A DNA stretch of 64,000 bases from Psammoneis japonica (lineage: Eukaryota). Below are positions 225 through 24,255 of this stretch, one piece after another. The first letter of the stretch is position 1, and every line of letters begins with the position of its first letter. A program made the translations under genes and the position numbers. The stretch is from contig QPGO01000045.1 in the NCBI GenBank assembly GCA_008632985.1, forward strand, positions 310,001 to 374,000, read 5' to 3'. The notes beneath the pieces were generated by a model. The model had not been told where the DNA came from. It worked only from the letters and a program-made list of their open reading frames with translations, and made no database searches.

Positions 225-684
225 TCTCGGAAGCGTGTCTTCCACAGCAACAAGAGCTCGATGGGGAACAACAGTTGATGAGTCAACAGCCGTTAGTCCT
301 GCAAATTGCACGCCAGCTCAGATGACACTTCATTGTGCAACACGCACCTCAAGAGCAGTGCGAGTCAACAAAGTTGCTGCACCTCATCTCACAGTTCCTG
401 GGTTGAAGACAAGTGCGGGTGACAAAGTGTGCCTTGGAGACTTTCGGCGAGGCTCCTTTTTCCATTGTGCTGCCGCTTTCCATGCTGAAACAACACGTCA
501 AATCCGACGAGATCAGAGACGTCCCTGGCGCCAATCACGATCTGCCTGACAACAGCAACACACAAGGGCTGCGCCGGCACCTGCACCCGCACCACCAGCC
601 AATCTGGAACAAGAAGATGATGAAGCAACTGACAGTGAGGAGTTCGAGTCAACCAATGAAGATGATGATGAAGATGTCAACTGC

Positions 685-5766: not shown

Positions 5767-8700
5767 GAGATCTGTGTCGCAAAAAATAAAGCCGACGGCA
5801 ACCCGAGTTGCTCTGTTGTCGCCTTGCCTTCGCTTGTACCTTCTACTGTACTTGCGTAGCAATTGTTCTGAGTTGATTGCTCCTCTACAAGAAGTTGAAA
5901 ACTATGAAATAAGCCCATTTCAAAATATGGCCGTTTTGTTCAATGCCAAATCGCTGCCGACAACTCGCCGGTCTCGATCACATGTCATTCACGGTTCACG
6001 AAGGAAAAAGCCGATTCATCATTTCCAATTGGTTCACAGTTTCCTTACCTCATCTTTTTTGTTTCTTATGGACACAAGGACTCATTGATTCTGCTGTTTT
6101 GAGTGAATTGTCCTCGAAACTATCCTCACACCCTAGAGTTGCTTCGTACTTGTTCCAAAAGGGCTACAGCTCGACTTCACCGTCACGATACCCGTGTCTT
6201 TGTACCCGTTCAAAACGTTTAGCATGATGCAAGGGACACGCATACATGCGATTACCATTCTTATATGGAACAAAGCCCTTTTTACACGGCGTAAAGTCAA
6301 GTGTACGTTTACCGGGAGAAGCAAATTTCAGAGTGGCTTGCACAATCGCTCGGCCTTGAAGTGTGTAGTGTGTCACTGCCAGCCGATTCTATGTAGTGAC
6401 CACCACCATACAAGTCCCCGTTCTTCGTTGGATATCCACAAATATAACCCCACGGAACTTGTTCAGTACAACTCGATTTGATTTTATATCATTCACTCGG
6501 AAGAATTCCGAAATCAAGAAACTTGCTCTTGTAAGTGTTGCGTGTTGTTGTTATGTTGCTGACTTGATACCTTCTCGCTTAGCTTCTAGTGCTAATAACC
6601 TGGCTGAAGAACGCTTCTTGTTTACGGGTATTACGGGTATTCCTTGGGCACACGTGCCGTGATTTTGTGGTGCCATGACTTGTTGCGGATGTGATGTTGT
6701 CTTGGTTGCAGCCGCTACTTCATCCAGCAAGTGGCTCATGGTCTCACGGTGAATGAATGCGATGGCTGCGCTGGTGCCTGGCTCGCCTGGCCTACCTGGC
6801 GAGAGGTCGTCTGTTTTCCGACCGATGGTGCCGCACACGGCACCATAATCGCCACCGTAGAACAATGCTGAATTTGCCGTAGAGAATCTTTCCGTTGGAA
6901 CAATTTTCGATCGCTAAAACTGCGTCCGACAATGCACCTCCGAGGATGGCGGAGATGTCTTCAGATGGGTACACCCGAAAGCTGTGTCAATGGAAAAGGC
7001 TACGTGCATGTCAGTTGTACAGCTTCTAAGGACCCTGAATGCTGATTCAAGTTTGAAAAGGGCGTGCTGTTTCGCCTGTCAAGGGAGACGAGTTCAGCGG
7101 TCTCGATTCTCGATGGCTTGCACTCGGCATCTTGTGTCTCACCAAGTTGCACTTGCAACAGAGAGAATGACAAGAACAAAACAAGCCATTGCATTGATCT
7201 CTTTTGGGTCACAAGCACATGAGTGTTGCCATGAATTCATCATTGTTTGACTTTGTTCTTTTGTTGTAGTCTGGTGGTTGCTTTCATGATTGCCTCGAGA
7301 AGAAAACGGACGGCACTTTTTCTGAAGAAGATCTTCGTTTATTTCTTGACTCCATGCAGGACAAGTGCTTGACAGATTCAACATCAAACCATCCAAAGTG
7401 GTGCGCGGACAATGACCTGGGAAAGATGTGAAGACAACCTGCCCTCCTGCCATTCAAAATGTGTGTCGGTGGGCCAGCTGGCGCCACTGACGGAGTTGGG
7501 TGTGCTGTCCACAGTTTCAGTTTTGTTGGCATTGTTGGTGGTTTGCACCAGGCAACCAGCATGCTTTGGAGTGACTCCAAAAGTTGCTTGGGCACTCTCT
7601 GGAGAGAGCTGTTCATTGTTGTGCACATGCTGATTGGCTGGGCCACCATCAGCGCGCAGAGAACAGGGCAATCCATTCCATGGCTGTTTGTGTGGTCACA
7701 GCAGAGAAATGTGCAAACTTGCACAGTGTGAGTGTGACACAGTCTCTGAGGAAAGAGCTGAAGAGTGGCTCACATTTTGAGCAAGATCTCCATGACTCTT
7801 TTGGCAGACAATCAGATGAAGAATGGGTTGAAGTCTGCAAATTGGCTCTCCCATGCACTGACGCCATTGTCTTTGAACAGCAGTTGCCACAAGCATGAGA
7901 TGGATGTCTCAAGTGAGGAGTTTAGAGTGGAAGGAACTGAGTGACCAAGAGTTGTGTTGGTCAGTGTCATTCTCTTGTTTGGCTTGGGCTCTGCAGAGTT
8001 GGGCAGGGTTGACGCAATTTGGCTCACCTCCTTGTGTGCTCTTCTCAGTTGTTCATTTGAGGCACCAGTTGTGTTGCAAATTTTGGCGTGCCTCTGACAG
8101 TGGAAGATTGGTTTCCAAAAAGTGAGACCACTTCATTCTGTCATCCTGTGCAGGCCATCAACCTTCAGCCATGCTGCTTGTGCTCAGCTTCCAACCATGC
8201 AATGAGGGGGCGAGTCAGAGAACAACAAGCCACATCAATTTTTTGCAAAACAACAGGACACCATTGGGAGCCATCTTTGCCAATGCTGCACCATCTCTTC
8301 ATTGACAATGTGTTGGAGAGGTTGCCTGGCTGCTGATTTAGCCAGGTGTGCAAGCCGCAGTTTTGTTTTGTTTGCATGTTGGCTTGCACGCCCATGCACT
8401 CAAGTGGCTCCAAGAGTTGTGCCCAAACTGCACTTTTTTGAAGCCATTTGTTGTCATGTGTGCCAACCAGGCCACCATCAGCACAGAATGGGACAATCCT
8501 TTCTGCTGCTTCTGTGCTGACTTGAAGCAAAAATGCACAATCTTGCACAGCAAAGAGTGTGGCACAGCCTCTGGAGATGAGCTGACAAGTGAGCAGCTCA
8601 CATTTTGAGCAGGATCACCATGATTTGGTTGATGGAGACAAGGAAAAACACGTGGGCATTTCAAAACCTGGATTTCCACACTGATGCAGCCAGCTGTTGT

Positions 8701-9476
8701 CTTTGATGAGTGGGTGCAAGTTTGAGTTGAACATTTCCAGCAAGTTTGGATCAAGGGCTGTGTGAAGAACCACACACAGCCAAGAGTTGCGCTGGTGGCA
8801 TGCTGTGTGGCTCAATTTGTGGAGTTCTTGGGCAGGGTTGACTCCAATTTGGAAGCTGTCTTGGAGTCTGCTCACACCCTTGGTGTTGCACATTCTTGGC
8901 AAGAGGCAAGATTGCCTCTTTTTCCATCTTGCACAGGTGGGGGCTGACCTTCAATCAGCATGGTGCAGTGGACACCCAAGATCTTTTGACCTTGCAATGA
9001 GAGGAGGGACAGCGAGAGAACAACACGTTGCTCCAAATGTCCTAAAAAGCAACAGCTTTGGAGCAGCAGCCTGTGGGGAGTCCAAGGGGAGACCAACAAC
9101 TTGGTTGTCAGAGAGAACAATGAGTTGCATGCCAGATGTTTGCAAAAATGGCTGGGACACCAGCACTGGGGCAGCCCCCATCTTTTTACAGGAGCCGCAA
9201 TGATTTTGGAAACTTGGCTGGTGCTGGCTGCCCTGGCTGGCTGCAGCAAGCATGGTGTGTGGTGCTCAAGATTCAACTTGTTGCTGAAGGGTGCTCTCTC
9301 AGCACATGACCCACTCTCAAGTTGGGGCTTGGCCGACATCCCCGCCTCCTTGTGCCGCCACCACACCGCTGCTGTCAAGCATGCACAGACTCTGTGCATT
9401 GGGTTGCATCCTCTGGGAGTTGGGCCTGACGCACCCAGCAGCATTGCAGAGAGGCCCAACCAAAGATTGCCTTCAG

Positions 9477-9744
9477 CTGGCCTGTTCCAGCTCCAGGTGC
9501 TCTGCTTTTCATCACGCGAGAGGCCAATTTTCTGCACAGTTTGGCGCAGTTGACTCCTTCAATTTTGATTGTTTCGAAAATCGAAAGGTGAGTGTGCACC
9601 CGAAAACACATGTGAAGTGCCGCACACTCACCCTTCGATTTGGCAAAAAATGGATTTGGAAAAAGTCAATTGCACTGAATGCACAAATTTTCCAAATGAT
9701 GGAAATCGAACCCGCGCGGAGCACCTGGAGCTGGAACAGGCCAG
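9477..9744. mobile_element. MITE-like element, about 270 bp, with 26-bp terminal inverted repeats
   Basis: CTGGCCTGTTCCAGCTCCAGGTGCTC (9477-9502) and its exact reverse complement (9719-9744). A second copy lies at 1-224. Confidence 0.8.
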
Positions 9745-10797
9745 CTGGCACAGCAGTCTGGCACACACACAGGAGCAACAGCATGCCCACCATGCTTGGC
9801 TTTTGAGCCACACAACATGACATGATGGCAAGAGCCAACCATGCCATTGTCTCCAATGCTTTGCTGTGCTTGTCTTGATCACTGTCCTCTGCGCCATTGC
9901 AATCTTGCTGGTGCTGTGCATCCATTCTTTCATGCTGCACTTTGCATTTTGCACAGCTGTTGGTGGCTCGTTTTGCTGCATGGCATCCTTGCCATCAGCA
10001 AATTTTCAGCTCTTGCATCAGCTTCAGCAATTTCGCCAATCTTTTGCTCACATTTCATTGCTCTCCTTGCATCCCTTGTCCCCGCCACAACAGAGCCACA
10101 GCAGCTCTTCTTTTGGTGGACAAACACGAAAGTCATTGTCCTTCTGAGAGCTTGTTGTGTTTTTTTTTGCATCATTTCTTTTTTTCAGCAGCAAGTGGCT
10201 GTGCCTGTTCTCTCCCATTTCATGTGCACAGATGACACTTCAGTGTCACGCTCATTTTGATCACAGAGATTGTGCCTTGCAACAGTTTGCCGCTTCCCTT
10301 TTGGTCTTTTCTTTTCAACATTGTGATGCTTGCAATGCTGGAGGTTTGGCTGCTGTGCATTGACACTGGCCTCTTGGCAATGCAGGAACTGATCTTTGCA
10401 GTGACTGCAATGTTGCTGCTTTCATTGGCAAGTTCAAAAGATTGCATGTCCTTGTCACTGCTGATGCAAATTTTGTTAAACATGGTTCACTGGCCTCAAG
10501 CAATCATCAACATCCTCACTCAGCACAGCTTCTTTGCCTTTGAATGACAAAGTGATGGGCAAGCCCTGAGTCATTGTGCTGCATGTCTTCTCTGAGCAGT
10601 CAAAAAACATTGCACCTGTCACGGGGAGATTTTTGGGGAGTGCTTTGCATGTGTTTGTGCCTCTTGCAACTCATTTGACCAGGGCTGCTGTTTCTGCATC
10701 TGGAACCCAATCCCACCACCCGGCAAGGCAGCCACTTGGTCAATCCACCAAAATCTGTGTGCAGCCATTCTTTCAGAATCACAGGGGCCAACGAGCA

Positions 10798-10912
10798 ATG
10801 ACAGCATTCCAATGGAGGCAAGACCATCATTTCCAGCCCTTCTTGATCCTGTTGATGACAGCATTCCAATGGAAGCAAGAGCCATCATTTCCAGCCCTTC
10901 TTGATCCTGTTG
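10798..10912. repeat. About 58-bp tandem duplication
   Basis: atgacagcattccaatgga.gcaaga..catcatttccagcccttcttgatcctgttg occurs twice. Confidence 0.85.
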
Positions 10913-13900
10913 GTGTCTGGTGCCCATTGGGAAAAGCACTCGGCTCGTCTTGGTCCATGGGTCTCTTCATGAAAACCCCATGACATGAGCTGTGCTGCTG
11001 CCTTCTCAGCAAATGCACCACCAATGTTGGCTGCCTTTTTCAGCAAAATGTGAGCATGCCCAGTTGGCCAACTGGGAAGAGAGAAGAACTTTTGTGTTGG
11101 GAAGCTTCTTGTAGAATTGTGGAGGGGCTCAGTGTGGGTCATCCCAGGACTTGCAATCATGTCTTTGGTGAGTGCACTCTGAGCCACCACTTCCCACAAA
11201 GAGGCAAGCATGCAGCGTTTGTGTGCTTTGGCACTGACCTTTCTTCTTGTTTGAAGACAACAACGCGGTTGTGCTTGAACTGCAATCGCACCCTGGATGC
11301 TGTGTTGCACCCTTGACAAAGAATCCAAAGGATGCTGGCTTCATGATGATGCTGAGTCAAGACAATCACGTTGAATCAGGCATTTCTTCCAGTGCAAAGG
11401 AAGCCGTGCGAGTTTTGCCACATCCCGCCACAGAAATGGATGCCATGGAGCATCTTGCTGATTTCATTGGACTGCCAAATCCAGGGCGTTGCTGCATGCT
11501 GGAAACGAGCAATTGCACGGTTCTTTTTGCAGGGGCTGATGTTTTCTCAGGAGCGCCGGTGATCAGGTGATGCTGGCAAAAAAGTCTGGGTCAATTGGGT
11601 GGAGCAAGATCTGCTCACTGCAGACTTTGGCGTTGATGAACACTGCCAGTTTGCTGTGAACGAGGATGGCAGTTTGTCCCCAGTCACGCAACCTGATTTG
11701 GCCATTGGCGTTGCTGCTCTTCCATCTGCACATTTGGTCCCACGCGACAGTTCAAACTGACTGCTTTTCACCCGTGCCCCAGGATTGGATGCTGAAGTCC
11801 CACCCAGGCCTTGCCATGGTTGCCACGAGGCGCTGCACTTCATCGAAAATTCTGCCACTCCAAAGCACAGGGACAGGCCATGTCACTCACCATGAAATGC
11901 TTGCTCTCCACCCACTCGACAATCGCCATCACAATGAGGATTTGCTCATGAACAGACCAACTCTGCAGGAAGATGGCTCAGTGGTTTTGGTGGGGATGGA
12001 TTTGCTCCCAGAGAAAGGGGTTCCTTCAATGTTGTTGGGGTGCAACAAGGAAGCACTCAGATCAAATGCAGTTTTGGATGCATTGTGAGAAGCAACTTCT
12101 GCCAGCAAGAACGTGACCTGGATCATCAATGAAGAAGATGGGAGCATGTCTCTGCTGAATGCTCCATGGCTTGCTCCAGGCTGCGAACAGCTGGCGGGTG
12201 TCAGTCAAACCAATTCACTCATCAGCAAAGAAATGCAAGAACTGGCTTCGGTGCATGCTTGTCAGATCTTCGCTGATGAGGCCGTTGAGGATGATGATGC
12301 AATGTCTCTTGAGGGTCATCGAATTTTGCATGTGGTCATTGTCACTTTGTTTGCACATGGCTTTGGCCTGTGCATTGCCTTTGTTTGTGGATTGCTGGCA
12401 CACTGATTTTACTCAAGAGCACCCCATGGAAACTGTGCTTGGCGGGTCTTGCTGGTTTGTGCTTTGGGAGCTCCACCACATTGCTTTGTCTGTTCTTGTT
12501 GGCTGCCCAAGCATTTTTGGTGGTGCTTTGCAAGTGATGGACTCCAATGAGCAAACAACAATTCGGGCCTTGACAACAGTTTTGCAACTCAATCGATTGC
12601 AAAAGCTCTAGAAAGAGATGAGACTGGTGCCATTTCACAGGAGACTAAGTCTTGCCGGGACAATGTTGCTGTCACCAATGCTTTGACATTGCAAACCCAC
12701 AAGCTGCACCAGCAGAGCTGGCAACGAAGTGTCTTCTCTGCCCTCCTTGCTGCGCTGTGCATTGTTGCATCATCTCGCTGGCTGCAAAGAGCACGGCAGC
12801 CATTTTGAATTTCGTCCTCGTCGTCTTTTTTGTGCAGCGCAAGCTCCTGCACTCCATGTGTTGTGAAATTCGACATGGCTGCAATTGCGAGACATGGATT
12901 CTTCATCGCGTCCGCAACAAAGAGAAGGCGTTGATGCCAAAACTGCCGCATTTGATGGCACCTTCGTCAGGCTCTTGCCGGACACAAGAGCTTCTGCAAC
13001 TCTTCTGCTGCGCGGATTTTTGATTTGACGTGGGGTCAAGCACAGCAGAACCCAGCAAGGTGCTCCAGTGTTGGGCCAGACACTGGAAGTCAAGGCCATG
13101 CTGAATGAAGGCATGATGCGGCAAGCATTCTCTTGCAAGGACAGAGTTGGATCAGTTCATCAGATCACAGCCCACACCAGCAGTCACCAGATTCTTGGGC
13201 TGCCAGTTGGTGGCACATTGCATTGGAAGAACCCGCATTGTGATCACTTGATGGATGGAAGCAAGAACACTTCATTTGGGACAATGGTCAAGTGCAAAGA
13301 AATCCTCAGCCTGCCACTCCATTGTGTGCGCCATTGCAGCTAGTTGCCACTGCACCCATCTGATCTTGAGTGCAAGATTTTGCGAACATCGCTGTGTGAC
13401 AGTCGTGCTGGTGATTCATTGTTGACAGCCATGCTTTTTTTCTTTTTCTAGATTCAATGAGATGGCATCAAAACCGGTTGCCTGACCCAAAATTCTGGAG
13501 TGACTGTCTGAAGACACAGATGGAGGAGAAAGCAGAAATCAACGGTGGCTTGTTTTTGTTTCTCTGGGGCCCTTGCTGATTCACCACACACATCAGATGG
13601 AGAACAAGACAGGACAAAAGAAAGTGAGTCAAGAACATCACAGAGATGGCAAGAATGATCGGGTTGCCCAAAACTTGTTCAAGGAGAGTTTGTCAAGAGA
13701 AACTGCCTTTCAATTTTTGTGCAACCTGCCAGAACAAAGCCGTCAACAGAGAGGGGGCTCTTGGAGGAGAATGACGCAGGTGGAACAGCAATCCCTCCCA
13801 ATGTGCGCATTTGGAGTCTGTTGTGCTGCATCAAAAAGACCTCATTGAGGTCAAATGCTGAGCTCAATGGGCATTTGGGTGCACCGCAACGCCACAGCCA

Positions 13901-14170
13901 GGGCATGCAAAGCATGGCAAGAAGCACTTTCAGTCGCTGGAGCAGTCAGCAAAAATGTTGAGTTGCCTTTCTTGTCTCCGACGGAGTCAATCATGACGAT
14001 CATAAAAGAGCTGGAAAAAGTTTCATCTGCTGTTCGTTTTGAGCACCACTTTCCGCAAGAAGAAGACTGGAGAGCAGGCCAACAGAACCGCACCTTGGCA
14101 ATTGTGTGTCTGCGATGAGATGATGAGATTTCATCAAGCACATGCGTTCGTGCACAACTTTGGCACAACG

Positions 14171-14718
14171 TGTTCCAGTCCCAGGTGACGCACAAAACGA
14201 CAATCGGATTTTGAATGCAACTCATGTGTCTTTTAGTGCATGTGGCATTTTAATGTAAAATGCTTGGACGGATTGACTTTTGAAGGCTTCTAGAGTGTGA
14301 ACATTCAAACAGTTTTTTGTGGGGCACTCAAATCCTCATGGGACATGCATCACAAACTTCCTCAGCAGACTCAATGCTGATTGTGCGTCAGCAGATTTAT
14401 GCTGAGATTTTTTTGCAGGTGGAAAACCTGCCAAGCAGCATCGCAGAAAGATGCACTCAGGTGACATCCAAATGACGGCAACATTTTCGCCGAAAATCAT
14501 CCGCCGTGTTGCGAATCTTTCAACGCAATGAAAAACACAGACAGCGCAACAACAATGATGTTGCAACACTTGCACGAGTCTTGTCAGTGTTGCAAAACAT
14601 TTGTGCTTGTGTGAATCCATGCTTTTGGTGGTGAAAGTTTGATCGCAAGTTGGGGACCGCGCAAAAATCGCGCAAATGTCGTTTTTGTGCACGGTTTGGT
14701 TCACGTGCGGCTGGAACA
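14171..14718. mobile_element. Probable non-autonomous TIR element with TGTTCCAG ends
   Basis: Left end TGTTCCAGTCCCAGGTGA, right end TCACGTGCGGCTGGAACA. The left ~50 bp recurs at 60912-60960. Confidence 0.55.
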
Positions 14719-15535
14719 TGTCGCATGTGTGTTGCCGCCACAGCGACACTCTCTGTCAGTGAATCATTCCGCAGCACCATGCAAGAGCCAATGAGATGAC
14801 CACACAAACCCAATGACAAACACAATCACCCGCCCCAAAACTGTGGCTGCAAAGTGCGCGCAGGTTGCAACAAGCATTTGACTCGAGCAGCAGTCTTGTC
14901 TCCTGCGTGAAACGTTGGCTTGGCGCGGATGCGAAGTGACAGCAGCTTGCTTGCCACTTTGCTCTTGTCTTCTTTTTGATTCTTTCCCCTTCCAACCCAA
15001 GTGAGAACTGTGACAACAGATTGCTCCGCCGGATCCTTTTGCATGCTCGCCGCGAACCACGCACTTTTTCCATGCGGCGTGTCCACCCACTTGTTTTTGT
15101 TGTTGATTTCTCACACAGAAACAATTGACGCTGACAATCAATCACAGAAACAACTGCTCCTCATGCACACAGCAGAAGGACCACACCAAGTGGAGTGTTG
15201 ACGACTTGCTCATCACTTCGTTTGGCTGCAGAGTGGAAGATGAAGAATTTCGAAATTCTGGCACATTTTTGCCCAAAGTGCACACAGGAATCAGTGACAA
15301 TTTTGAAAGCACTGAGTTCCCGCCAATCTTCTACGTGCAAATCATGGCATTGATTCTACAAAGACACACAAAAATGACAGTGATTGAGAAATTTAGCAAC
15401 AGTCATGACACAAACAAAATCTCTCGGACAGCTTTTCTTTCGTGCTCGATTTCCATCACAACTCATTCGTCTCGCATGTTGTGTTGTTGTTGTTTGCCAA
15501 GCCAGAATGCCACAATCTCCAAGGATGGCTTGACG

Positions 15536-15916
15536 CGTTCCAGGTCCAGGTGGGACCTCGTGCTGCTGAACTGTGACATCGGCAGTTTTTTGAATCTCGT
15601 CGCATGTCGCACACATGGAATTCTACATGTTTTTTTGACATTTTGTGTCATTCTGCGGTGCACTTGTTGAGCAATCTGTCCAAAAACTTTTGACATTTTT
15701 TGTTGCAGCGCGATTCTGTGATGTTTTGAGAGTCACACAGGGCAGGTGCATTTGCAAAAACGTCAAGTGGCAAGAGGCACAATTGCACCACAAACTTGGT
15801 CGTTCATTTGATGTTGAAGACAAACACATCCATTGATTAAATTCTCACACTGCGGAGCTCGCACGCAGAATTCTGCGGGCCCAATGTCACACGGAGTCCC
15901 ACCCGGGGCTGGAATG
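15536..15916. mobile_element. Probable non-autonomous TIR element
   Basis: Imperfect TIRs CGTTCCAGGTCCAGGTGGGACCTCGTG and CACGGAGTCCCACCCGGGGCTGGAATG. The left ~90 bp is homologous to 1616-1720. Confidence 0.55.
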
Positions 15917-17099
15917 CATTGCTCGTGCTTCCTCTGGATTGAGAGCTTGCTCTTGCTTGGCACTCCACAACTCACTTTGCTTGATGGAGTGTTGTCTCTC
16001 TTTTCAACTCGTTGTCTTGCACGTTGTGCTGTTGTTTGCCAAGCTTGAATGCTGCAATCACCAAGGATGGCTCGCCCTTCCTCTGGATTGAGAGCTTGCT
16101 CTCGTTTGGTGCTCCACAACTCCTTTTGCTTGACGGCGCATTGTCTCCAATTGGCAGTGCAGGTGTTGCCAGCTGAGTCCAGAGGTCGGGGCAAATCGAG
16201 CGCGTCTCTCCGGCCTTGAGTCCATGTCACTCTTGTGTCTTTGAGCGCAGGAAGTTGTCCGTTCACTTGGTCAGTCAAGCCCACAGCTGTTGAAACAGAC
16301 AGCAAGTGTTCGTCTGCAAAGCAGCAAGAGCTTGCCAAGCAGAACACCATTGATGGAACACTGAATTGGGGTTTTGCCACACCGGCGACACAGCAGCACG
16401 GCAAGCCTTCACTCGCAGGGAGCAAATGGCTTGGCAAGCGGTTGACTTGCAAGTTTTCTTGTTGCCCCCACATTGCGTCCCCCCTTTTTTCTTTTTTTGG
16501 GGTGACATTTCACTCTGACGATGCAAAAAAGCTTGAGCACCATCTTTTGATGGCGCTCTTGAGGCATCATTGCCCTGCGTGGCCGATTTCCATGTCAACT
16601 TTTGACAATGGTGTGTTTCAAAATTTTGAAACACATTGCGAAACTTTTTCAACAGGAGCAGAAAGACCAGCGGTGCAATGCAGCGATCTTTGGTTGCGTG
16701 TGAGTCATTCCGCATGTGTGCCAATGGACTGCGATGACGGTTGCAGCATGTTCTCGGCCCTCACGCTCCATTGTTGTGACAAAACAAAAATGCAAGGATT
16801 GTGGCGCACTGGAGGTTTTTGTCACGAATCGCGCTTGCGCACCTTGTTGGATGAGGTGTCACAAGAACGCTTTGTTTGGACAGAGTCTGTCACACTGAAG
16901 CAATTTGTCCGAAAAATGGACAGGTGCGCTGTCCTCGATTAGATGGAGTGGTTGACCATTCACAGCAAAACAACGATGCAACCTAGAAATTGCTCGCATG
17001 TGTCTGAAGCCTTCATTCTGCCAAGCATGCAGGGCCCTGGAGATGCCAGTCAGGAATCTTAACTTGCAAGCGCGTGTGCTCCACTGCCCCGTCCCATTT

Positions 17100-18690
17100 G
17101 GACTCTTGTGGTTTGTCCACCCACCCAATGGACCGGTCAATTGCCTTGCCCCACGAATGCTTGAGCTCCGTTTGAGTGTCTTCCGACATGTCAGGAGAAA
17201 AGGTGCAGTCGTCTTCCCAAAGTTTCTTGATGTTGTCCAACGAGTCCCAGACACCCGCTGACAAACCCACAGCGCAGGCGGCTCCGGCAGCGGCAGTCTC
17301 GAGACTGCTTGGGCGAAGGACCCTGGCTCCCAAGATGTTGGCCAAGAATTGTGCAAATTCAGAGTTGGCAGCCATGCTGCCATCTGCACGAAGTTCTGAA
17401 ACAGGAACTCCCGAGTCAGCGGCCATGGCGTCAAACACCTCGGAGCACTGAAATGCTGCCGCCTTGATTGCTGCTCTTGCAACATGTGCCTTGGCATGAC
17501 AGGCGGTGAGTCCAGCAACAACTCCACGTGCACTCTCCTCCCAGTGTGGAGCCAGCAAGCCAGCAAAGGCGGGGACAAACCGCACCCTGCCAGCGTCATC
17601 GACGGAAGATGCCAAATCTGCAACATCTTTGGCGCTGTCACCGAACTGCAAGTTGTTGCGGAGCCATTGAACAAGTGATCCTGCAATGGCAACAGCACCT
17701 TCAAGAGTGCAAACCGGTGCTTCTCCCTTGATTTGGCAAAAGTGGGTTGCCAGGAGTCCACACTCTGAAATTTGCAGTTCACCCTGCGCACCCATGTTCA
17801 TCGTGAGAAAGGCTCCAGTTCCGAACACAGCCTTGGCTTCTCCCACTTGAAAGCATGCTTGACCAAACATTGCAGCATGTTCGTCACCAAGAACAGCTCC
17901 AATGGGCACACCCTCCAACTCCGGACATGACACTGCAGTCCCAAAGTCACCGCCAACGGAAGGTTCAATGGCTGGCAGCATGGATCTGGGAATGTCAAAG
18001 GTGTCAAGAAGCCAGTCGTCCCAGTCAAGTGTCGTCAAGTTGCAAAGCAAAGTCCTTGACGCATTCGTCACATCTGCCCCGTGCTTTTCTCCACCCGCGA
18101 GCTTGCACAAGAGCCAAGAATCAATTGTTCCAAAGAGCGCTTGACCATCACGGGTCTTGCCCTCTGAGCCGTCTACATTGTCAAACATCCAACTCCATTT
18201 GGTTGCCGAAAAGTGGGCAGAAATGGGAAGCCCTGTTTTAGAAAGTAAAGCATCTTTTCCTCCCAGGGTCTTGCAGAAGTCAGCAACAAGTCCCGCGGTT
18301 CGTCCACAATGACAAACAAAAGCAGGACACAGTGGCTCTCCTGAATCCTTGTCCCACACGACAGTCGTCTCCCTCTGATTTGTGGTTCCAATGGATGCGA
18401 CTGAACTGCTCGTGATGTTTGCTTCAGTGAGTGCATCCAAAAGACACAGTGCAGAATTGTCCCAGATCTCGGAGGCGTCGTGTTCGACCCATCCGGACTG
18501 AGGATGACACTGTTTGTGCTTGCTCTGAGAAGAGGAGGCGGGCTTGCCAAACCTGTCATGCAGAATAAAACGCGTTGACAAAGTCTTTTGATCAAGGGAT
18601 CCAACGCATTGCTCTGACAAGCCAGCGGAAAAAGATCTCTGCCACTTTGAGCCAAATGCACCAAGACCCCTGCCACTGATGAGAGCACAA
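17100..18690 (-). pseudogene. GK: Glycerol kinase (FGGY family), full length but hypermutated
   Basis: Motifs GSLDQ, PQSGWVEHD, TNQRETTVVWD, FGTIDSWL, DVTNASRT, FGTGAF, LEGAVAIAGSLVQWLR and FVPAFAGLLAP.W are present. The 599-codon ORF 17013-18812 has no Tyr, and several conserved residues are altered. Confidence 0.93.
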
Positions 18691-18982
18691 GCAGCATGCT
18701 GATTCGACCCACAAGAAGTCGGGGCAACAAAAAGCATGTCAGCCAAGAAGAAGGCGGATTGCATGCTGGAGCCAGCATCATGTGCTTTTGTAAAAAAACT
18801 GTTGGGAACCACAAGGTTGACAGGCTTTGGCCTGTCTCTTGTGTGACAACATGGTGCAGCATTGCAGAAGTGTCATGAACAGCAGCAATGACACAACAAA
18901 TTAGTGTCACTTGCAACACAGCAACACAAACAACAATGAAAGCACCAAAGAATTGCTCCAATGGTTGCACCTCTGGACGCAG

Positions 18983-19600
18983 AGTCCTCGCCGCATTCGT
19001 CATGTCTGTCACGTGCTTTTCTCCACCCGCGAGCTTGTGCAAGAGCCAAGAACCAATTGTCCCAAAGAGTCCGTCCCGTGCCTTGCCCTCCAAGCCATGC
19101 ACATTGTCAAACATCCACCGCAATTTGGTTGCCAAAAAGTGGGTGGAAATGGGAAGCCCCACTTTAGAAAGTGAGGCATCTTTTCCTCCTGGGCTCTTGC
19201 AGCAGTCAGCAACAAGTCCGGCAGTTCATCCACAACTCCAAACAAAAGCAGGACACAGTGGCTCTCCTGAATCCTTGTCCCACACGACAGTCGTTTCCCT
19301 CTGAATGGCAACTCCAACTGATGTGACTGAAATGCTCGTGACATTTGTTTTGGCCAGTGCATCCGAAATGCACCGCGCAGAATTGTCCCAGATCTCAGAG
19401 GCGTCGTGTTCGACCCATCCCGACTGAGGACAATGCTGTTTGTGCTCGCTCTGAGAAGAGGAGACCGGCTTGCCAAACCTGTCATGCAGAGCGAAGCAAG
19501 TCGACAAGGCATCCTGATCAAGGGATCTGACACATTGCTCTGATGAGCCAGCGGAGAAAGATGTCTGCCATTTCAAGCCAAACGCACCAACACCCCAAAT
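18983..19600 (-). pseudogene. GK: Partial second copy of glycerol kinase (N-terminal part), frameshifted
   Basis: Paralogous to about 18050-18670 (SLDQ, PQSGWVEHD, QRETTVVWD, FGTIGSWL, DMTNAART) and split over two frames. Confidence 0.9.
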
Positions 19601-19621
19601 GCATGACATGAATCATGGGTG

Positions 19622-21400
19622 TCAACATGAAGAGCACCTGGAGGTGCAACATGAGCAAAGAAAAATCCAAGAGGACTCCAAACACTTGCTCTCCACATCT
19701 TTTGTTTTCCATGCCATGCATGCGAGGACAGCAAGGATGGCAACAAGAGTCAAGAGGGGAGTCGTTGTTCCCAGCATTTTCTCGTGGGTGTCGCACTGGC
19801 AAATCAACTCCCCTGTGAAGTCATCCATGTGATGGCGATCCCAGTCCAAACCACCCATGGCAGTCCACACTGACAGGAAGATGACAGTTGATGGCGCAAC
19901 TGCAATGGAGGGCCAAACAACATGCTTGCACTGTGCTTGGGTCCTTCGAAATTGAAGTGCCTTGTTGATGCGCCAGAGCCAGGCAGGCAAGAGATGAGAA
20001 AATGTCGCAAGATGTTTCAAACAGCACATCACGTCACACGCACACACTTCATCACACCTTTCCCCTGCAGTTTGTGATGTGCCCCATGACCAAAGCCAAG
20101 CCACTGCTGTGCAAGCCTTTCCCAAAGCTTCTCTGTCCCACCCATGGCTTTCGTCGTTCGACATCATCAGAATTGCCAGCGTCTGAAAAAAGCTTCCAAA
20201 AGCCAACAGATGCAAAAAAACGGGTTGCGATGCCACCACGACTGATGATTTCCGATGCAGAAGAACCCAGACAAAAGACGAAAATGTGACAAATTGAGCA
20301 ATTGCCATGAACATGAGGCCAAATGTTCTGACTCCTCTGTCAAGGCAGTTTTGTTCTGGAACATTGCGCAACAGTGCGGGGGGCTGTGGGGCGCCATTTG
20401 CGCATGCAAACGGGGCCACCTTGATCCAAGAACCAAAATGATCATCATTGCTTTCTCAACTTGAAACCATGGACAATGCGAATCTGAATTTCGCAGACGC
20501 AAATGCCAGTTAGAGATGGCCAAGCAGTGGCCAAACACAAACATTGTGGTTGTGCAGCATTCCCTCACCTGTCAGCATCATCATCTAGACTCGGAAGTGC
20601 ATTGAGTGCACCAACAGTCAAACTGTGAAGCGCCCGGCTGCCTGGAACACACAACTCATTTTCTCCAAAGATCACATGGCCGGTTGCTCCAGTGAAGTCG
20701 ACCAATCGCACACCATTGTTGTGTGATTTACCAGCAATCTCTTTGTTTTGTCACAAGCGGCATTTCCTGAGCACAAACCCGCACCAACAGACATTGCAGC
20801 ATCACGCACCAAACCAGAACCGGCCAAAGGATCGTGGGTCTTGAAATGATCTTTCCATGTGCAAAAACATCTTGGGGAACCTTTTGCAATTGGATTGAAT
20901 GAGTTAACTTGTGCAACAAAAGACCCACTTTGTGCCCTCCATGATTTCAGAAGTCCATCTTTTTCAGGATCAAAAGTGAGTCCATCCAAATCGCGAAACA
21001 CAACAGAACCACAAAGTGACTTTCTCATGTTGGCATTGCCAAGTGAAGCCTCATTCTCAAAGAAGTGAAGTGAGTTGGTGCCAACAAATGCCCACATGCA
21101 TTCACCATCATTCACACCCAGCTCATCTGCCACGCCAGCTGCAATTGGCAACTCAGTCTCTACAGAGCTGATGGCATGGACGATTGTTCCGAAGCCGTTC
21201 TGATGCAGCGTCTCCAAGCCACTTCTTGTTGATGAGGCAAGATCTCTCATCACGCTTTCGCGAATGTTGATGTCGCAGTGCTTTGAGGAATCTGGAATCT
21301 GCGTCGCAGTGGATGCAGTTTTCTTGGTGCAAGTTCTACAGACTTCTGCGCGATTTTGATTTTTTGGCTGTGATGGACAGACCACATGTTTTGGCGCAGA
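19622..21400 (-). pseudogene. Class C (GABA-B-like) GPCR: extracellular ligand-binding region plus 7TM, hypermutated
   Basis: ORF 19622-20419 has VVVASQPVFLHLLAFG, DESHGW...ACTAVAWLWSWG, WRINKALQFRR and LACMAWKTKDV, typical of 7tm_3-type receptors. The upstream ORF 20672-21574 looks like the extracellular domain. Confidence 0.75.
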
Positions 21401-21689
21401 AAAAGTTGCTCGTCTCTCACTGATTTTAGCATGTCTGAACTTTTTGCGTGCAGCTTTCATGAACAACAAACATGCCAGCTGCAGAGCTTCACTCTGTTTC
21501 TTTTCCCAACTGGAATTTGTTCCCCAACAAAAGTGTTCTGGCGCATCAAGTTTGGCATTGGGAGCAGTGTTCACAGCTTGAGCAGGTGGTTTCCGTCCTC
21601 GACCTCCCCTTTTTCAGGCTAAATGTCCTCCTCGTCTTCCTTGTCATCTTGTTGTTGCCACTCTTGTTCAACCGCTTGGGCCCCCTTTT

Positions 21690-21835
21690 GCCTTTCCTGC
21701 TTGTTGCACAAATGCGCCTTGACTTGCACTGAAGTTTTGGCACCAACCGACTTGGCAATGTTGTCTGGATCAATCTTTCCAACTTTCATGGCATCTTGGC
21801 ACTTTCCAACTTCCTCTTCTGTCCACGCCACCCCT
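21690..21835 (-). pseudogene. Myb/SANT-like domain fragment
   Basis: WTEEEVGKCQDAMK...IAKSVGAKTSVQVKAH. Confidence 0.6.
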
Positions 21836-22149
21836 GTCAACGCCTTTCCAGGGGAACCTGCAGCAGCCTGTGGCTTTGTGTTGCTTGCAGGATTCGAGGC
21901 ACCAATGTTGAGAAGGGGCGGCGGTGAGGCAATGTCCCTCTGAATTCTTCGACCGGTTCGCTGGTGGTGCAATTCCATGGCAGCACGAGCCAAGTGCTCC
22001 ATCATGGCAGAGCCCATCTCGACATTAGAAGGAGCAAGCTTTGCAAGCTCTTGCCCCAATTTGTTGGCGCCTTCTGCGTCTCCCTGTCCGTCTGGTGCAT
22101 CTGCACTTGGAGCAGGACCATCCTTTGCACTGACAAAGGCCAGAGTGCC

Positions 22150-23450
22150 AGCCAAACAGATTCATGGAGTTGACTTGTCTCCAGAAATGACTCGAAATGC
22201 TGGATGCACACATCCTCCTTCATTTGATTGGCTGAGTTCGGGTGAACAGAAACCACTCGCTTCCCATTGGGTGGAGTCAGGACCAAATCAGACTCACCGT
22301 CAAAAATTCCTTGTTCCGTTTTTAAGCCAGCCTTGCAGATGCAGTCAATGTCATGTCCTTTCTGCCACAAGACTCACTTTGTTGAGCAGGGCTTTCAGAA
22401 ATTGCAGCTGACACATGCTTTCCCCAACTGCCAGTCCTGGGAAATGCAGCCATTGTGACAGACTCTCCAGCCTCACAACCTTGTTGATGCAGCAACATGT
22501 GGCCACGTCAGACTCCTCCTGAGATGCCATGCAGTGTCACTCGTTTCGGACTCCAGTTTTAAATTCTTTTGGCATTTGGTCTCAGCAGTGCAACGCGTGC
22601 CAAACGCTCTTGACGTGACTGTCATGTGACTCGGGTGCCATTGCTTGTGGAGCCCCTCTCTCTTTGACCAAATCAAGAGATTCCTGTCACACAAATGTTG
22701 TCAATGCACTTGATCATTTGCACCCTGTTCAAGACATTCGACTTCGACCATGTCATGCCACCCGGAACCTTGCCATTTTCTCGACCAAGTTCCTTGTCTC
22801 ATTTGTCAAGCTTTTGATGTCTTTGATTTCTGCTCGGGCTTGTCTTCTCGAGATTCTGCATGAGCTTTGTAGAACTCCAACAAGGTCTTGTCGCACTCCT
22901 CATGCAGTCACACATTGGCCTCTCCTCTTGAAGTTCCAAGACATGTTTGGCAACACGAGCATGATGGTCCGACTGCTCCTTGCACAGTTGCTCCATTTTT
23001 TCATCCACGACATCCGCCACTTCCTCGATTGGATGGTCGGACACAATTCATTTTCTGATTTCTTTGAGCTTGAACCCGGGCATGTCCGACAATTCAAAAC
23101 GTTGAAGCTCCTCTTCTGCCGACCAAAGCTCATCCAAAATGGTCACCAATGCCTTTGACTCATCCATGTCATTTTCATTTGAACGGGCTGCAGCGCCTGC
23201 TGCAATGGTTCCAGGCTGGGTGGAATGGCGCAATGGGCACAAGACCACTCAGCCGTGCAGTGTTGGAGGGACGACAAGAATGCGGCGGCTTGTGAACATG
23301 AGCCCCCTTTCTTCATTGACAAGTTTGGCAACACTGGGGCACACCACAAGCTCCAACTGCCACAAAGAAAGCAAAACATTCTGCTTCCAGCAGAAGTGGT
23401 GGCGGCCAGCAAAAAGAAAGTGATTGCCAGCAAGGCGAGCACCACCATGG
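22150..23450 (-). pseudogene. Hypermutated inverted homologue of the 5' ATRX-like segment of the tandem unit
   Basis: About 22210-22630 is reverse-complement homologous to about 25160-25675 (GIFDGESD.VLTPPNGKR.VSVHP..ANQMKE). 23380-23450 matches 25085-25150. Confidence 0.85.
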
Positions 23451-24255
23451 CATGAAAAGGCAGCACACATCAGTGCGCACAAGCGAAGCAAACCTGGTCG
23501 AATTTGGCTTCAAGAAAACCCCAGCCGAGCCAAAAAGCAAGCAATGGCACCCAAAGACTGCAAAGAAAATGAACAGCCCTTTACGATTTTAAAGATTGCC
23601 ACGAGAAGTTGCACTAGCTAGAGACCACAAACAAAGATTGCACACCCAATCACCCCAGATTTTGATTGTTTTCTGCCCTCCATCAGTCTTGCACGATCGG
23701 TCGGATGGAGGGAGAATTTTTGATTTCGAACTGTTTGCTGTATTATTTTTTTTGTCCCCGAATATCATACTCTCGTCAGTACCGGGACAACATCGTACGC
23801 TTCTACGGAGTGGAACGGAATGTACCGGCATGTCTTGCTGTACTGTACAGTACCTTTTATCAGTAGGCAAATCTCGTGGAGACAGCACGTCCAACTTTTC
23901 AACATCCACCGCAGAAACCAGACAAACATCGCCCCGCGGCGCCGCTTATTCTCCGCAGTTTATTAGTGTGGGAATGAAGATGGGATTATTTTATGCCAAG
24001 GACATGCTCATTCAAATGGATGTAGACGAACCGTAAGCTGGTGTCATGGAAACAATCTCGCCTGTAGTCACGGCCCGAGTCATATCCATTTTTGCCATTG
24101 ATTTGAACTCGACAATGTCACCTTCCGTTGTCAGCACTTTCACGTGGCCTGCGTGGCCTGTGACATGCGTCACACAGGCGTCGAACAAGGCTGGAGTCGA
24201 TTCGGTGTTTTGAAAGTCTGACTACGGGCTCTCATTTACCTGAATTTATACACCA

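Follow-up and report, generated by a model that had tools for sequence, protein, structure and literature searches.

The 64-kb window analysed here (the whole stretch of DNA under study) is nuclear DNA of a pennate diatom and contains four sharp-edged blocks depleted in the dinucleotide TA (D1 to D4, 27.9 of 64 kb). It raises the question of what distinguishes the few TAs that survive in these deserts, and what they reveal about the process that removed the others. The original prediction held that the residual TAs reflect the preference of a mutator (TAY favoured, YTAR spared) compatible with a TadA-like enzyme acting on DNA.

Composition and content of the TA deserts

TA density is 2.9 per kb in the deserts against 46.8 in the normal blocks; CG falls from 53.0 to 24.8 per kb and TG plus CA rises from 143.1 to 216.4, a gain of 73.3 per kb that matches the loss of TA and CG (72.1 per kb). 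YR steps remain constant (244.1 per kb in deserts, 242.9 in normal blocks) and GC rises from 0.466 to 0.494. The composition of the deserts is that of normal DNA in which 94% of TA and 53% of CG have been turned into TG or CA, the two products being about equally frequent, with no strand asymmetry. All deserts are CpG-poor, TA loss and CpG loss occupying the same blocks. D2, the interval of the original prediction, holds 46 TAs between 7035 and 23575, compared with about 775 expected at 46.8 per kb; its edges are defined to within tens of bases (the last and first flanking normal TAs lie at 7027 and 23582), it includes non-repeat DNA and most of it is found at single-copy read depth (Table 1).

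The 599-aa fossil glycerol kinase of D2 contains no tyrosine, 21 cysteines and 17 histidines, and in the six alignment columns with tyrosine in 6 or more of 12 homologues it carries cysteine (four) or histidine (two). Its partial duplicate differs from 18047-18670 by 14 CA-versus-TG steps, and seven paralogue pairs in the deserts show 28 such steps, indicating independent changes on the copies. Similarly, the TAs of the array unit 25673-24921 are TG or CA in the inverted copy at the right end of D2. Contigs assembled separately from the reads of a public run match the desert at 99.4–99.9%, in a comparison that covers window positions 1-20000 and runs (X1–X3) of one sample, possibly the source of the assembly. 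The normal block corresponds to a single contig (depth about 140) and the desert to two (depth 54–71), one near-identical to the window (3/697, 1/680 and 4/669 differences) and the other about 10% divergent (66/715, 70/623 and 90/667), with CA at positions 7402-7403 where the window has TG.

Table 1. Coordinates of the deserts, fossil sequences and tandem arrays in the window
Feature	Position	Strand	Characteristics
TA desert D1	1..3480		10 TAs in 3.5 kb; continues past window start; per kb TA 2.9, TG 96.9, CA 111.0, CG 36.2; residual TAs: YTAR 6, mixed 4
TA desert D2	7030..23580		46 TAs in 16.5 kb; per kb TA 2.8, CG 28.8; residual TAs: YTAR 27, mixed 19, RTAY 0
TA desert D3	47266..52090		11 TAs; per kb TA 2.3, TG 119.4, CA 119.2, CG 8.1 (most CpG-poor desert); residual TAs: YTAR 9, mixed 2
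TA desert D4	59140..62215		13 TAs; per kb TA 4.2, CG 16.6; residual TAs: YTAR 5, mixed 8
Glycerol-kinase (FGGY) ORF fossil	17013..18812	-	Pfam FGGY_N 4.6e-51, FGGY_C 1.5e-31
Partial FGGY_N duplicate	18979..19612	-	Pfam FGGY_N 3.2e-20; 83% identity to 18047-18670
7tm_3 receptor-like ORF remnant	19625..20455	-	Pfam 7tm_3 4.3e-09
Inverted, diverged copy of part of array unit (25673-24921)	22214..23573		72–92% identity piecewise; D2 right end
Lone unmutated 581-bp unit	25917..26498		Ancestor, together with first copies at 29817, 36048, 41692
Unit flank B1, unmutated control	26499..29816		Copies: B2 32722-36047, B3 38373-41691
Partly mutated tract, array 1 (29817-32721)	30517..32433		73 A>G/T>C changes vs unmutated copy
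Partly mutated tract, array 2 (36048-38372)	36706..38039		59 A>G/T>C changes, including the two CAT>CGT
Partly mutated tract, array 3 (41692-44016)	42364..43683		52 A>G/T>C changes

Mutation in progress in the 581-bp arrays

The tandem arrays between D2 and D3 offer mutated copies beside their ancestor, whose four copies depart from their common consensus in only two places overall, both A>T. The mutated tracts stop within tandem copies; in array 1, the first copy and the final ~290 bases are unmutated. The arrays lie in ~5.65-kb tandem units whose near-identical flanks are spared: B1 to B3 carry 113 TAs each with no TA change, against 52–73 changes inside each subarray, and an alignment of B1 to B4 and A1 (3.3 kb) shows only three substitutions, none at TA. 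Fourteen subrepeat copies compared with the unmutated copy yield 191 differences: 184 A>G, of which 166 are at TpA; 5 C>T, every one at CpG; and 2 A>T. In the six inner copies, change rates are 120/360 (0.33) at TA, 6/606 at AA, 7/534 at GA and 4/~420 at CA, while C changed in 5/396 cases at CpG and in none elsewhere. About 67% of TAs but 1.3% of CpGs have changed in these young tracts, so TA loss does not lag behind the deamination of CpG. A given site could become TG in one copy and CA in another, runs of TG and CA along the array are random, neighbouring sites changed equally on both strands, and both strands of one TA never changed together (no CG outcome in 180 site-copies). Change thus took place in situ, repeatedly and independently in adjacent copies, with both strands affected equally. 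Common ancestry among copies is visible at column 119, which is G in 10/10 mutated copies.

Context preference in the arrays and deserts

The expectation that array TAC and TAT usually change was borne out in the six inner copies, where per-strand change amounts to 53/114 for TAC and 43/96 for TAT compared with 12/48 for TAG and 12/102 for TAA, an order at +1 of C and T, then G, then A. Editing is 0.46 with Y and 0.16 with R at +1 (Mann–Whitney U, p 7e-5), and 0.14 with A at +2 against 0.40 otherwise (p 0.003), while the 5' flank had no effect in the arrays (-2 and -3 not significant). By flank class, changes were found in 40/96 R-TA-Y, 56/114 Y-TA-Y, 19/114 R-TA-R and 5/36 Y-TA-R sites. The preference of the edited strand comprises T at -1 (25–35-fold), C or T at +1 (~3-fold over R) and a base other than A at +2 (~3-fold); with the neutral 5' flank, the edited strand therefore reads T-A-Y-B, and the arrays show that the deciding side is 3' of the edited A. 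One exception is gtttTAcccc, changed in 0/6 inner copies despite reading TACC. TAT (0.45) is edited as often as TAC (0.46), and TACG (0.58) is not preferred over TATT (0.60). Additionally, no hairpin-loop effect on array editing was detected (rho -0.02) over 60 oriented contexts, which are not independent because copies share ancestry and the strands of each site are in competition.

The bias of the residual TAs in the deserts is confirmed and sharpened: of 80 pooled TAs, 47 are YTAR, 33 mixed and none RTAY, compared with 166, 538 and 255 of 959 TAs in normal blocks counted without array copies 2–4 (30398-45989) against pseudo-replication (chi2 86, p 2e-19). An internal control on all 6816 YR steps within the deserts gave the same bias (chi2 66, p 5e-15). 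The residual classes named in the original prediction account for 39 of the 46 TAs in D2 (27 YTAR and 12 TGTAR/TCTAC) against 261/959 in normal blocks, and its five example sites were recovered within three bases (9043 gtccTAaaaa, 10477 ttgtTAaaca, 11112 cttgTAgaat, 12609 gctcTAgaaa and 22323 ttttTAagcc). Its never-changing array motifs (TTTTAAT, GATTTAAT, GGTAAAA and TTGTAGC) are intact in 10/10 mutated copies, and the CAT>CGT changes that it placed outside TA lie at 36760 (rather than ~36769) and 37249. On the other hand, its rule of favoured TAY and spared YTAR holds in deserts and arrays but not uniformly, since the array's only CTAG was altered in 9/10 copies.

The next base outwards tells as much as the immediate neighbour, with strand-symmetrised -3 T/+2 A present in 59% of residual TAs against 27% (p 2e-8). 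TAs survive as T-Y-TA-R-A because both strands then read TARA. Under a hot/cold rule framed after both data sets had been seen, survival in the two-strand classes falls from 0.57 (cold/cold) to 0 (hot/hot), with no hot/hot site in the deserts and 147 in normal DNA. TTAA is the best-surviving desert context (0.42), and context ranks in arrays and deserts correlate at rho -0.66 (p 0.07, n=8).

A putative adenine deaminase and competing explanations

A context-biased TpA mutator is very probably real. Its best explanation, to which we assign a probability of about 0.5, is that the residual TAs are sites refractory to a domain-limited, near-saturating transition hypermutation by a putative adenine deaminase; adenine deamination as the chemistry, taken on its own, is a tentative assignment at slightly under even odds. 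Hypermutation converts 5'-TA-3' into TG or CA, an A:T>G:C change at the TpA adenine of either strand. The agent would be an enzyme deaminating adenine to hypoxanthine in duplex DNA; replication would fix I:T as G:C, destroying the TpA on the opposite strand. The target may be silenced, CpG-methylated chromatin (tandem-repeat interiors, repeat-bearing blocks and enclosed genes), where CpG decay would follow more slowly; the restriction of tract C>T changes to CpG and the CpG poverty of every desert point to such a link with silencing. The prime suspect would be a candidate zinc deaminase of the CDA/TadA fold. Stramenopile-restricted proteins combining deaminase, SAM and tudor domains are in print, and LmjF36.5940-like deaminases have been suggested as possible DNA mutators (PMC3239186, in extract). 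No deaminase domain was detected among 111 window ORFs scanned (of 148 of at least 110 aa). The adenosine deaminases of this fold known to us act on RNA or single strands, whereas here there is no strand asymmetry, runs are random and no hairpin-loop effect is seen; we know of no precedent for a duplex-acting adenine deaminase, and this counts against the explanation. So do the lack of a TACG preference, the exceptions to the context rule, the sparing of the near-identical flanks of the ~5.65-kb units and the single-copy depth of most of D2.

RIP in Neurospora and other fungi is a C>T process at CpA that lowers GC and creates stop codons. It resembles the present case as a block-wise, near-saturating transition hypermutation set by dinucleotide context, with sharp edges, relics of enclosed genes, targeting of tandem repeats and an association with DNA methylation (here a probable one). 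RIP makes TpA, as captured in RIP indices (PMC7884421), whereas the A>G change at TpA removes it, raises GC and is incapable of creating an in-frame stop. Also unlike RIP, the ~5.65-kb units with their near-identical flanks are spared and the 581-bp array interiors are mutated. The bacterial DddA-type toxins act on duplex DNA and require T at -1, as here, but they deaminate cytosine (TC) and are not known to target chromatin. The changes do agree with a TadA-type enzyme, but only in part: TadA, ADAT2-3 and ABE7.10 share A>I read as G and a pyrimidine on each side of the target A, and the +1 Y fits the 5'-YAY preference and AAA avoidance of ABE7.10 (PMC10188366, in extract). Natural TadA edits TAC, recoding Tyr to Cys as in the fossil kinase, and the E. 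coli enzyme is described as requiring TACG and never using TAT (PMC5630033, in extract), in contrast to the equal use of TAT and TAC and the lack of a +2 G effect here. ABE accepts C at -1, which is excluded here (~0.0095 vs 0.333), natural TadA-type enzymes act on RNA hairpin loops, and the present changes, unlike those of TadA/ADAT enzymes, are heritable and occur in duplex DNA on both strands. The TadA-like reading of the original prediction therefore stands for A>G, -1 T and +1 Y and fails for TACG preference and hairpin-loop selectivity.

A>G at T-A-Y is indistinguishable from T>C at R-T-A by sequence, each TA>CA being formally T>C and the TAYB rule 3' on the A strand being a V-R-T-A rule 5' on the T strand. 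Chemistry directed at thymine, for example a TET/JBP-type dioxygenase modifying T in 5'-R-T-A-3' of silenced chromatin to a product (5hmU/5fU or a derivative) that pairs wrongly with G, producing T>C, draws on the same counts, and the two-strand symmetry without single-strand signatures fits a duplex-acting modifier. In dinoflagellates and in the telomeres of kinetoplastids, hydroxylated thymine is concentrated at TpA, and 5-formyluracil is able to mispair with G. We consider it unlikely: we know of no oxidised thymine in diatoms, and oxidised-T lesions also yield transversions, of which there are only 2 among 191 changes. Miscopying of T at WA motifs occurs in the second phase of immunoglobulin hypermutation, and an error-prone patch repair in which a Pol eta-like polymerase with this habit is drawn in by the frequent T:G mismatches that 5mC deamination leaves in methylated chromatin appears improbable. 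The comparison with Pol eta that the original prediction proposed went against the polymerase: WA includes AA, yet AA changed 34 times less than TA; Pol eta spectra contain many transversions, against 184 A>G and 2 transversions in 191 changes here; and TA changed far ahead of CpG in young tracts. The common blocks of TA and CpG loss would suit it, as would the gathering of Pol eta mutations at TA (WA) hotspots, TA being the hottest A:T site of a process tied to C deamination (PMC9723645, in extract).

RNA editing of the ADAR/ADAT type, acting on transcripts or dsRNA and carried into the genome by reverse transcription or RNA-templated repair, would account for A>G with U at -1, typical of ADAT-type mRNA editing; in the sexual-stage editing of filamentous ascomycetes (Tad2-Tad3 with Ame1) U precedes 86% of Fusarium sites, against T at 166/184 here (PMC4817773, in extract). 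However, the +1 order there is the opposite (A and G about level, followed by U and then C; G preferred by ADAR), and that editing is confined to RNA and hairpin loops (PMC4817773, in extract). It is very improbable, as tracts end inside tandem copies and spare near-identical flanks, neighbouring sites changed equally on both strands, the 16-kb blocks contain non-repeat DNA and a scan of 80 desert ORFs returned no reverse-transcriptase domain. Modified bases can give systematic miscalls on some platforms, and the TAs might really be present behind such miscalls or an assembly or polishing error. This is scarcely credible given the agreement of the separately assembled contigs, the Cys/His at conserved Tyr codons of a full-length ORF and the CA-versus-TG steps between desert paralogues; strand-specific modification predicts TA at about half of sites, or all-TG and all-CA versions, whereas TG and CA occur intermixed and TA has disappeared. 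Common transposon families insert at TA and TTAA, so that selection against TA in the blocks (avoidance of such transposons or of a nuclease, with no mutator) could be imagined. It is the least probable explanation, as TTAA survives best, a glycerol-kinase gene has lost its invariant tyrosines, and recently diverged tandem copies are changing now at rates far above their flanks. The RNA-editing, Pol eta and selection explanations are disfavoured.

Literature searches gave no description of an A-to-G TpA DNA mutator of this kind. The TAs that survive in this stretch of diatom chromosome expose the sequence preference of an A-to-G mutator of DNA that appears not to have been described before.

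Composition of the TA deserts and flanks of their residual TAs

Four blocks of the window, referred to as TA deserts D1 to D4, show a TA observed/expected ratio (in 500-base bins) that falls from about 0.5-0.8 to 0.00-0.16, together with TG and CA ratios that rise to 1.35-2.95. They comprise 27,932 bases with 80 TAs, compared with 1447 TAs in the remaining ~36 kb (the normal blocks), and their edges are sharp; the normal TAs nearest to D2 lie at 7027 on its left and 23582 on its right. The density of all pyrimidine-purine (Y-R) steps is nearly the same in deserts and normal blocks (244.1 and 242.9 per kb), whereas TA drops from 46.8 to 2.9 per kb, CG drops from 53.0 to 24.8 per kb and TG plus CA rises from 143.1 to 216.4 per kb. 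The mass balance is near exact (72.1 per kb lost as TA and CG, 73.3 per kb gained as TG and CA), and the deserts therefore look like normal DNA of the genome after transitions at 94% of its TA and 53% of its CG steps. Hardly any TA remains in any desert (2.3-4.2 per kb), whereas CG density is unequal among them, indicating that TA loss saturates first and that CpG decay comes later. D3 and D1 differ fourfold in CpG loss with equal TA loss, and CpG loss may be a clock of desert age.

Positions and properties of features in the window
Feature	Positions	Details
TA desert D1	1-3480	CG 36.2/kb; residual TAs: YTAR 6, mixed 4, RTAY 0
TA desert D2	7030-23580	CG 28.8/kb; residual TAs: YTAR 27, mixed 19, RTAY 0
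TA desert D3	47266-52090	CG 8.1/kb; residual TAs: YTAR 9, mixed 2, RTAY 0
TA desert D4	59140-62215	CG 16.6/kb; residual TAs: YTAR 5, mixed 8, RTAY 0
Very high-copy repeats in deserts	1335-2001, 9339-10005, 14008-16675	summed contig depth 1e4-1e5; no Pfam domain
58-bp tandem repeat inside D2	10798-10912	two copies, 96% match
Inverted copy	22214-23573	80 mismatches of mixed kinds
Tandem array of ~5.65-kb units	24572-45989	1, 5, 4 and 4 copies of the 581-bp subrepeat per unit
ORF of a ~5.65-kb unit (example)	38690-40480	597 aa
Mutated tract, array 1	30517-32433	73 changes
Mutated tract, array 2	36706-38039	59 changes
Mutated tract, array 3	42364-43683	52 changes
194-aa ORFs	31773-32357, 37424-38008, 42487-43071, 43068-43652	in mutated subrepeat copies only
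SulP transporter gene	54564-56402	612 aa; normal block
TA-rich stretch left of D4	57001-59000	TA observed/expected 1.13 at 57001, 1.18 at 58501; GC 0.33 at 57501-58000
Mitochondrial-carrier ORF	59133-59525	minus strand; Pfam 6.9e-07

The stretch just left of D4 is the most TA-rich of the window, an opposite extreme adjoining a desert. The SulP protein of a normal block finds its best matches in pennate diatoms (such as Fragilaria, Seminavis, Nitzschia and Cylindrotheca; 57-67% identity), none of the recorded proteins being identical to it. The 64 kb gave 0 matches to Rfam families and 0 to tRNAs.

The original prediction was that the surviving TAs are biased by their flanks, with YTAR spared. 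All five of its example sites are present, and its survivor classes account for 39 of the 46 TAs of D2 (27 YTAR, 12 TGTAR or TCTAC) compared with 261 of 959 in normal DNA, a baseline taken without array copies 2-4 (30398-45989) to avoid repeat counting of sites. Over all deserts the YTAR, mixed and RTAY classes hold 47, 33 and 0 of 80 TAs versus 166, 538 and 255 of 959 (chi2 86, p 2e-19), the 0 RTAY standing against ~348 expected at normal density, and the bias is seen in each desert singly. An internal control in which the 80 TAs were compared with all 6816 desert Y-R steps by flank class (chi2 66, p 5e-15) needs no normal DNA and gives the same answer. Tetramer survival, defined as density in deserts over density in normal DNA, runs from 0.42 for TTAA through 0.19 (CTAA/TTAG), 0.125 (CTAG), 0.077 (GTAA/TTAC), 0.068 (CTAC/GTAG), 0.028 (ATAA/TTAT) and 0.006 (ATAG/CTAT) to 0 for ATAC/GTAT, GTAC and ATAT.

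In addition to what had been predicted, the second base out from the TA tells as much about survival as the adjacent one: a T at -3, equivalent to an A at +2 in the strand-symmetrised count, accompanies 59% of survivors versus 27% (p 2e-8), and positions -4/+3 and farther out had no significant effect on TA survival. When +1 and +2 are combined, with TAYB termed hot and TARA cold (Y being C or T, R being A or G and B any base except A), desert survival by two-strand class is 0.57 for cold/cold, 0.28 for cold/mid, 0.061 for cold/hot, 0.049 for mid/mid, 0.008 for hot/mid and 0 for hot/hot (0 sites in deserts versus 147 in normal DNA). The TGTAR/TCTAC class is explained by the same rule, since 10 of 13 CTAC/GTAG survivors, judged by eye, combine TACA on one strand with TAGA on the opposite one.

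Direction and rates in the 581-bp subrepeats

Outside the subrepeats, the ~5.65-kb units show only 3 substitutions in alignment and their flanks B1-B3 carry 113 TAs each with 0 changed; the array looks very recent or homogenised. The ORFs of the units had no Pfam matches. In each multi-copy subarray the first copy and the final 290-330 bases are unchanged. The mutated tracts lie near the subarray middle with an offset of 160-250 bases rightward, so that ~660-790 bases to their left and 290-330 to their right are untouched.

When the four untouched subrepeat copies are taken as the ancestor, 191 differences are found: 184 A>G (or T>C), of which 166 are at TpA, 5 C>T, all at CpG, and 2 A>T. The inverted copy at the right end of D2 is too old and short for a clean spectrum. 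Rates per available base, taken from six fully inner copies, are 120/360 (0.333) at TA, 6/606 (0.0099) at AA, 7/534 (0.0131) at GA and 4/~420 (~0.0095) at CA, the last obtained by halving a row that pooled the A with the C of CA; at C they are 5/396 for CpG and 0 for other C. The off-context CAT>CGT changes noted earlier are present at 36760 and 37249, each beside a changed TA. No TA became CG (0/180 site-copies), as expected if a single hit abolishes TpA on the opposite strand. A given site could become TG in one copy and CA in another, and runs of identical outcomes showed no excess over shuffled order in the three arrays (32 versus 34.5, 26 versus 25.9 and 27 versus 25.2), which together indicate that hits were recurrent, independent and on both strands. 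Additionally, TG and CA counts per kb differed at p <0.01 in 0 of 30 bins, so that neither they nor the runs carry a transcription- or replication-strand signature.

The arrays agree with the predicted preference for TAY. With contexts read on the edited strand (T at -1, then the target A), the per-strand rate is 53/114 for C and 43/96 for T at +1, versus 12/48 for G and 12/102 for A, and the four array sites predicted never to change are changed in 0 of 10 copies. Over 60 oriented contexts the mean is 0.46 for Y and 0.16 for R at +1 (p 7e-5) and 0.14 for A and 0.40 for the other bases at +2 (p 0.003), while no significant effect was found for Y versus R at -2 (0.41 and 0.28, p 0.10) or for T versus the other bases at -3 (0.41 and 0.31, p 0.38). 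The crossed rates for -2 and +1 (R-TA-Y 40/96, Y-TA-Y 56/114, R-TA-R 19/114, Y-TA-R 5/36) indicate that the 3' side decides and that the 5' bias of the survivors is its mirror image from the opposite strand. These results bear out the flank bias and extend it. Editing is favoured at T-A-Y-B and resisted at T-A-R-A, the TAs left behind read T-Y-TA-R-A, and what decides is the sequence 3' of the edited A.

Presence in reads and fate of genes

Contigs from three public runs of one sample, which may be the source data of the assembly itself, were compared with positions 1-20000. The normal block (5294-6692) is represented by a single contig at depth ~140 with 9/719 and 6/651 differences (~1%), and the desert (7338-13340 and 16676-20000) by contig pairs at depth 54-71, of which one member hardly differs from the window (3/697, 1/680 and 4/669 differences) and the other ~10% different (66/715, 70/623 and 90/667). 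These contigs, built from reads in a separate assembly, reproduce the TA-free sequence; the half-depth pairs indicate that the organism is diploid there, its two homologues differing about ten times as much in the desert as in the normal block. The ~10% is about what is calculated for independent resolution of ~45 TA and ~50 CG steps per kb; for example, the window has TG-CG-CG at 7402-7407 and the other contig CA-TG-CA, and at 7267 the other contig carries CA in place of a residual TA. Seven old paralogue pairs within deserts similarly contain 28 CA-versus-TG double steps. At 15636, within a very high-copy repeat, a loose end from one run carries TA where the window has CA/TG, indicating that unmutated copies of this repeat exist elsewhere.

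D2 contains a 599-aa ORF with complete FGGY_N (4.6e-51) and FGGY_C (1.5e-31) domains and 54-60% identity to diatom glycerol kinases. It has 0 Tyr, 21 Cys and 17 His, compared with 6-12 Tyr and 0-11 Cys in 12 homologues. Six alignment columns, three of them invariant, have Tyr in at least 6 of these 12, and there the fossil kinase shows four Cys and two His. Next to it lie a partial duplicate of FGGY and a remnant of 7tm_3. A change of TA to TG or CA cannot create an in-frame stop and does away with TAG and with half of the TAA fates, so that an open frame in a desert is no sign of function. Of the 148 ORFs with 110 aa or more, 80 overlap a desert (44% of the window is desert); five of these 80 have Pfam matches (FGGY three times, 7tm_3 and Mito_carr), and no reverse transcriptase, integrase, transposase or deaminase domain was found among them by Pfam. 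The 31 of 68 non-desert ORFs searched, with array repeat copies omitted, gave kinase, SulP and GPR180-like matches only, and no deaminase of the CDA fold (HxE...PCxxC) was found among the 111 window ORFs scanned. The 194-aa ORFs of the mutated subrepeats probably arise through erasure of TAA and TAG stops; one has a weak SNF2-related match (E 0.0042) under the Pfam cut-off. The mitochondrial-carrier ORF lies inside the left edge of D4, crosses it by a few bases and may belong to a gene cut by, or partly within, the mutated domain.

Relation to known mutators and proposed mechanism

These data define a TpA-specific process that changes A:T to G:C at a very high rate locally, is confined to domains, hits both strands without coordination and obeys a 3' context rule, accompanied in the same domains by a slower decay of CpG to TpG or CpA. 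Targeted hypermutation of silenced DNA is represented by RIP (C>T) in fungi and by AID/APOBEC (C>U) in animals, and the logic seen here is closest to fungal RIP with chemistry and direction reversed. RIP is defined by C>T at CpA, with TpA/ApT raised and (CpA+TpG) lowered, whereas here TA is turned into TG and CA and C>T is found at CpG only. RIP acts on all copies of duplicated DNA of ~0.4-1 kb or more, whereas in this window the interiors of the 581-bp arrays are mutated, sparing the first copies as well as the flanks of the ~5.65-kb units, near-identical as these are. The trigger is therefore probably not simple sequence duplication. Most of D2 is at single-copy depth (at least 85% likeness), but may stem from an older duplication. 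RIP also depends on a C5-methyltransferase homologue of the RID/DIM-2 type and takes place before meiosis. Diatom DNMT4 is described as related to RID and of unknown function (PMC9998398).

The proposal that a TadA-like enzyme acts on DNA is partly supported: the A>G spectrum, the strict T at -1 (TA being hit far above AA, GA and CA) and the Y at +1 are in its favor, whereas a TACG preference and a hairpin-loop effect, expected from TadA/ADAT, are absent. PMC5630033 gives TACG as the core motif of bacterial TadA, with TAT unused; here TAT and TAC are edited alike (43/96 versus 53/114), with array rates of 28/48 for TACG, 9/18 for TACT, 13/30 for TACC and 25/42 for TATT. Unpaired probability, computed with DNA parameters in 41-nt windows for the 60 oriented contexts, did not correlate with edit fraction (rho -0.02, p 0.88), the mean being 0.33 in both loop (n=17) and non-loop (n=43) sites. 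The adenine base editor ABE7.10 favors 5'-YAY and disfavors AAA, as quoted in a later paper (PMC10188366), and the present process likewise favors Y at +1 and has its lowest rate at TAAA (3/48), but excludes the C at -1 that ABE accepts. ADAR acting on double-stranded RNA prefers U>A>C>G at -1 and G at +1, as quoted in PMC4817773; hyper-editing by ADAR is contradicted here by the rate for G at +1 (0.25), below C (0.46) and T (0.45), and by AA being 34-fold under TA. The CpG loss, deepest in D3, may reflect decay through deamination of 5-methylcytosine, by which CG>TG/CA is confined to methylated domains. Pol eta mutagenesis at WA hits both TA and AA and yields transitions and transversions, and the comparison with its signature turned out negative (AA 6/606 versus TA 120/360; transversions 2/191). 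Each of the three candidates Pol eta, ADAR and fungal ADAT editing conflicts with a feature that was tested.

CpG loss, C>T only at CpG in the young tracts and the position of the tracts in mid-array suggest that the mutated domains would be silenced, methylated chromatin. There, adenine would be converted by hydrolytic deamination to hypoxanthine, which would pair as G, and replication would fix the change, giving TG in one daughter, or CA when the opposite strand was hit. Such deamination would account for the purity of the spectrum (184/191), the strict T at -1, the mutual exclusion between strands and a +1 pyrimidine preference like that of TadA-derived editors. The process does not fit the textbook TadA/ADAT in that, besides lacking the TACG and hairpin-loop effects, it has no strand bias at kb scale and no runs; an agent without single-strand signature would have to take duplex DNA as its substrate or treat the two strands alike. 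A live rival is a thymine-modifying enzyme producing T>C at (not T)-R-T-A, for which the counts are identical when the opposite strand is read. Our tentative reading, to which we give a probability of about 0.4, is that diatoms, or this lineage, have a chromatin-targeted deaminase for the adenine of 5'-T-A-Y-B-3' in duplex DNA, a genome defence mirroring RIP that erases TpA from silenced or tandem DNA in both homologues independently and kills genes by Tyr>Cys/His and similar replacements, never by making stops. Candidate leads for the agent come from PMC3239186, which lists deaminase+SAM+tudor proteins restricted to stramenopiles as well as LmjF36.5940-like deaminases, a possible DNA-mutagenizing activity being suggested for the latter.

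In 80 metagenome loci around SulP homologues of related algae, TA deserts were found in 0 of 1894 windows of 500 bases (504 kb), the 10 windows with TA observed/expected <0.2 being all in DNA of 59-78% GC without block pattern; these contigs are gene-centred and their lack of deserts says little about the repeat-rich DNA of other diatoms. No description of TpA-depleted blocks or of an A>G process resembling RIP, in diatoms or elsewhere, was found in full-text searches of open-access papers and preprints. The hypermutation process thus appears to be undescribed, and the finding is a sound quantitative fingerprint of it.

The window documents a natural A:T to G:C rewriting of DNA in strict TpA context, in saturating blocks of up to at least 16.5 kb. 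T at -1, Y at +1 and not A at +2 form a fingerprint for recognising the agent; by this rule the candidate chemistries can be told from Pol eta, ADAR and fungal ADAT editing, and it supplies oligonucleotide substrates for enzyme assays (TAYB versus TARA). To our knowledge, all current adenine editors are laboratory-evolved TadA variants. If the agent is an adenine deaminase acting on duplex DNA, it would be the first such DNA enzyme found in nature and of interest to base-editing technology. For genome annotation, desert blocks are full of long but dead ORFs, and the context rule offers a way to map and date the affected DNA in any diatom genome.
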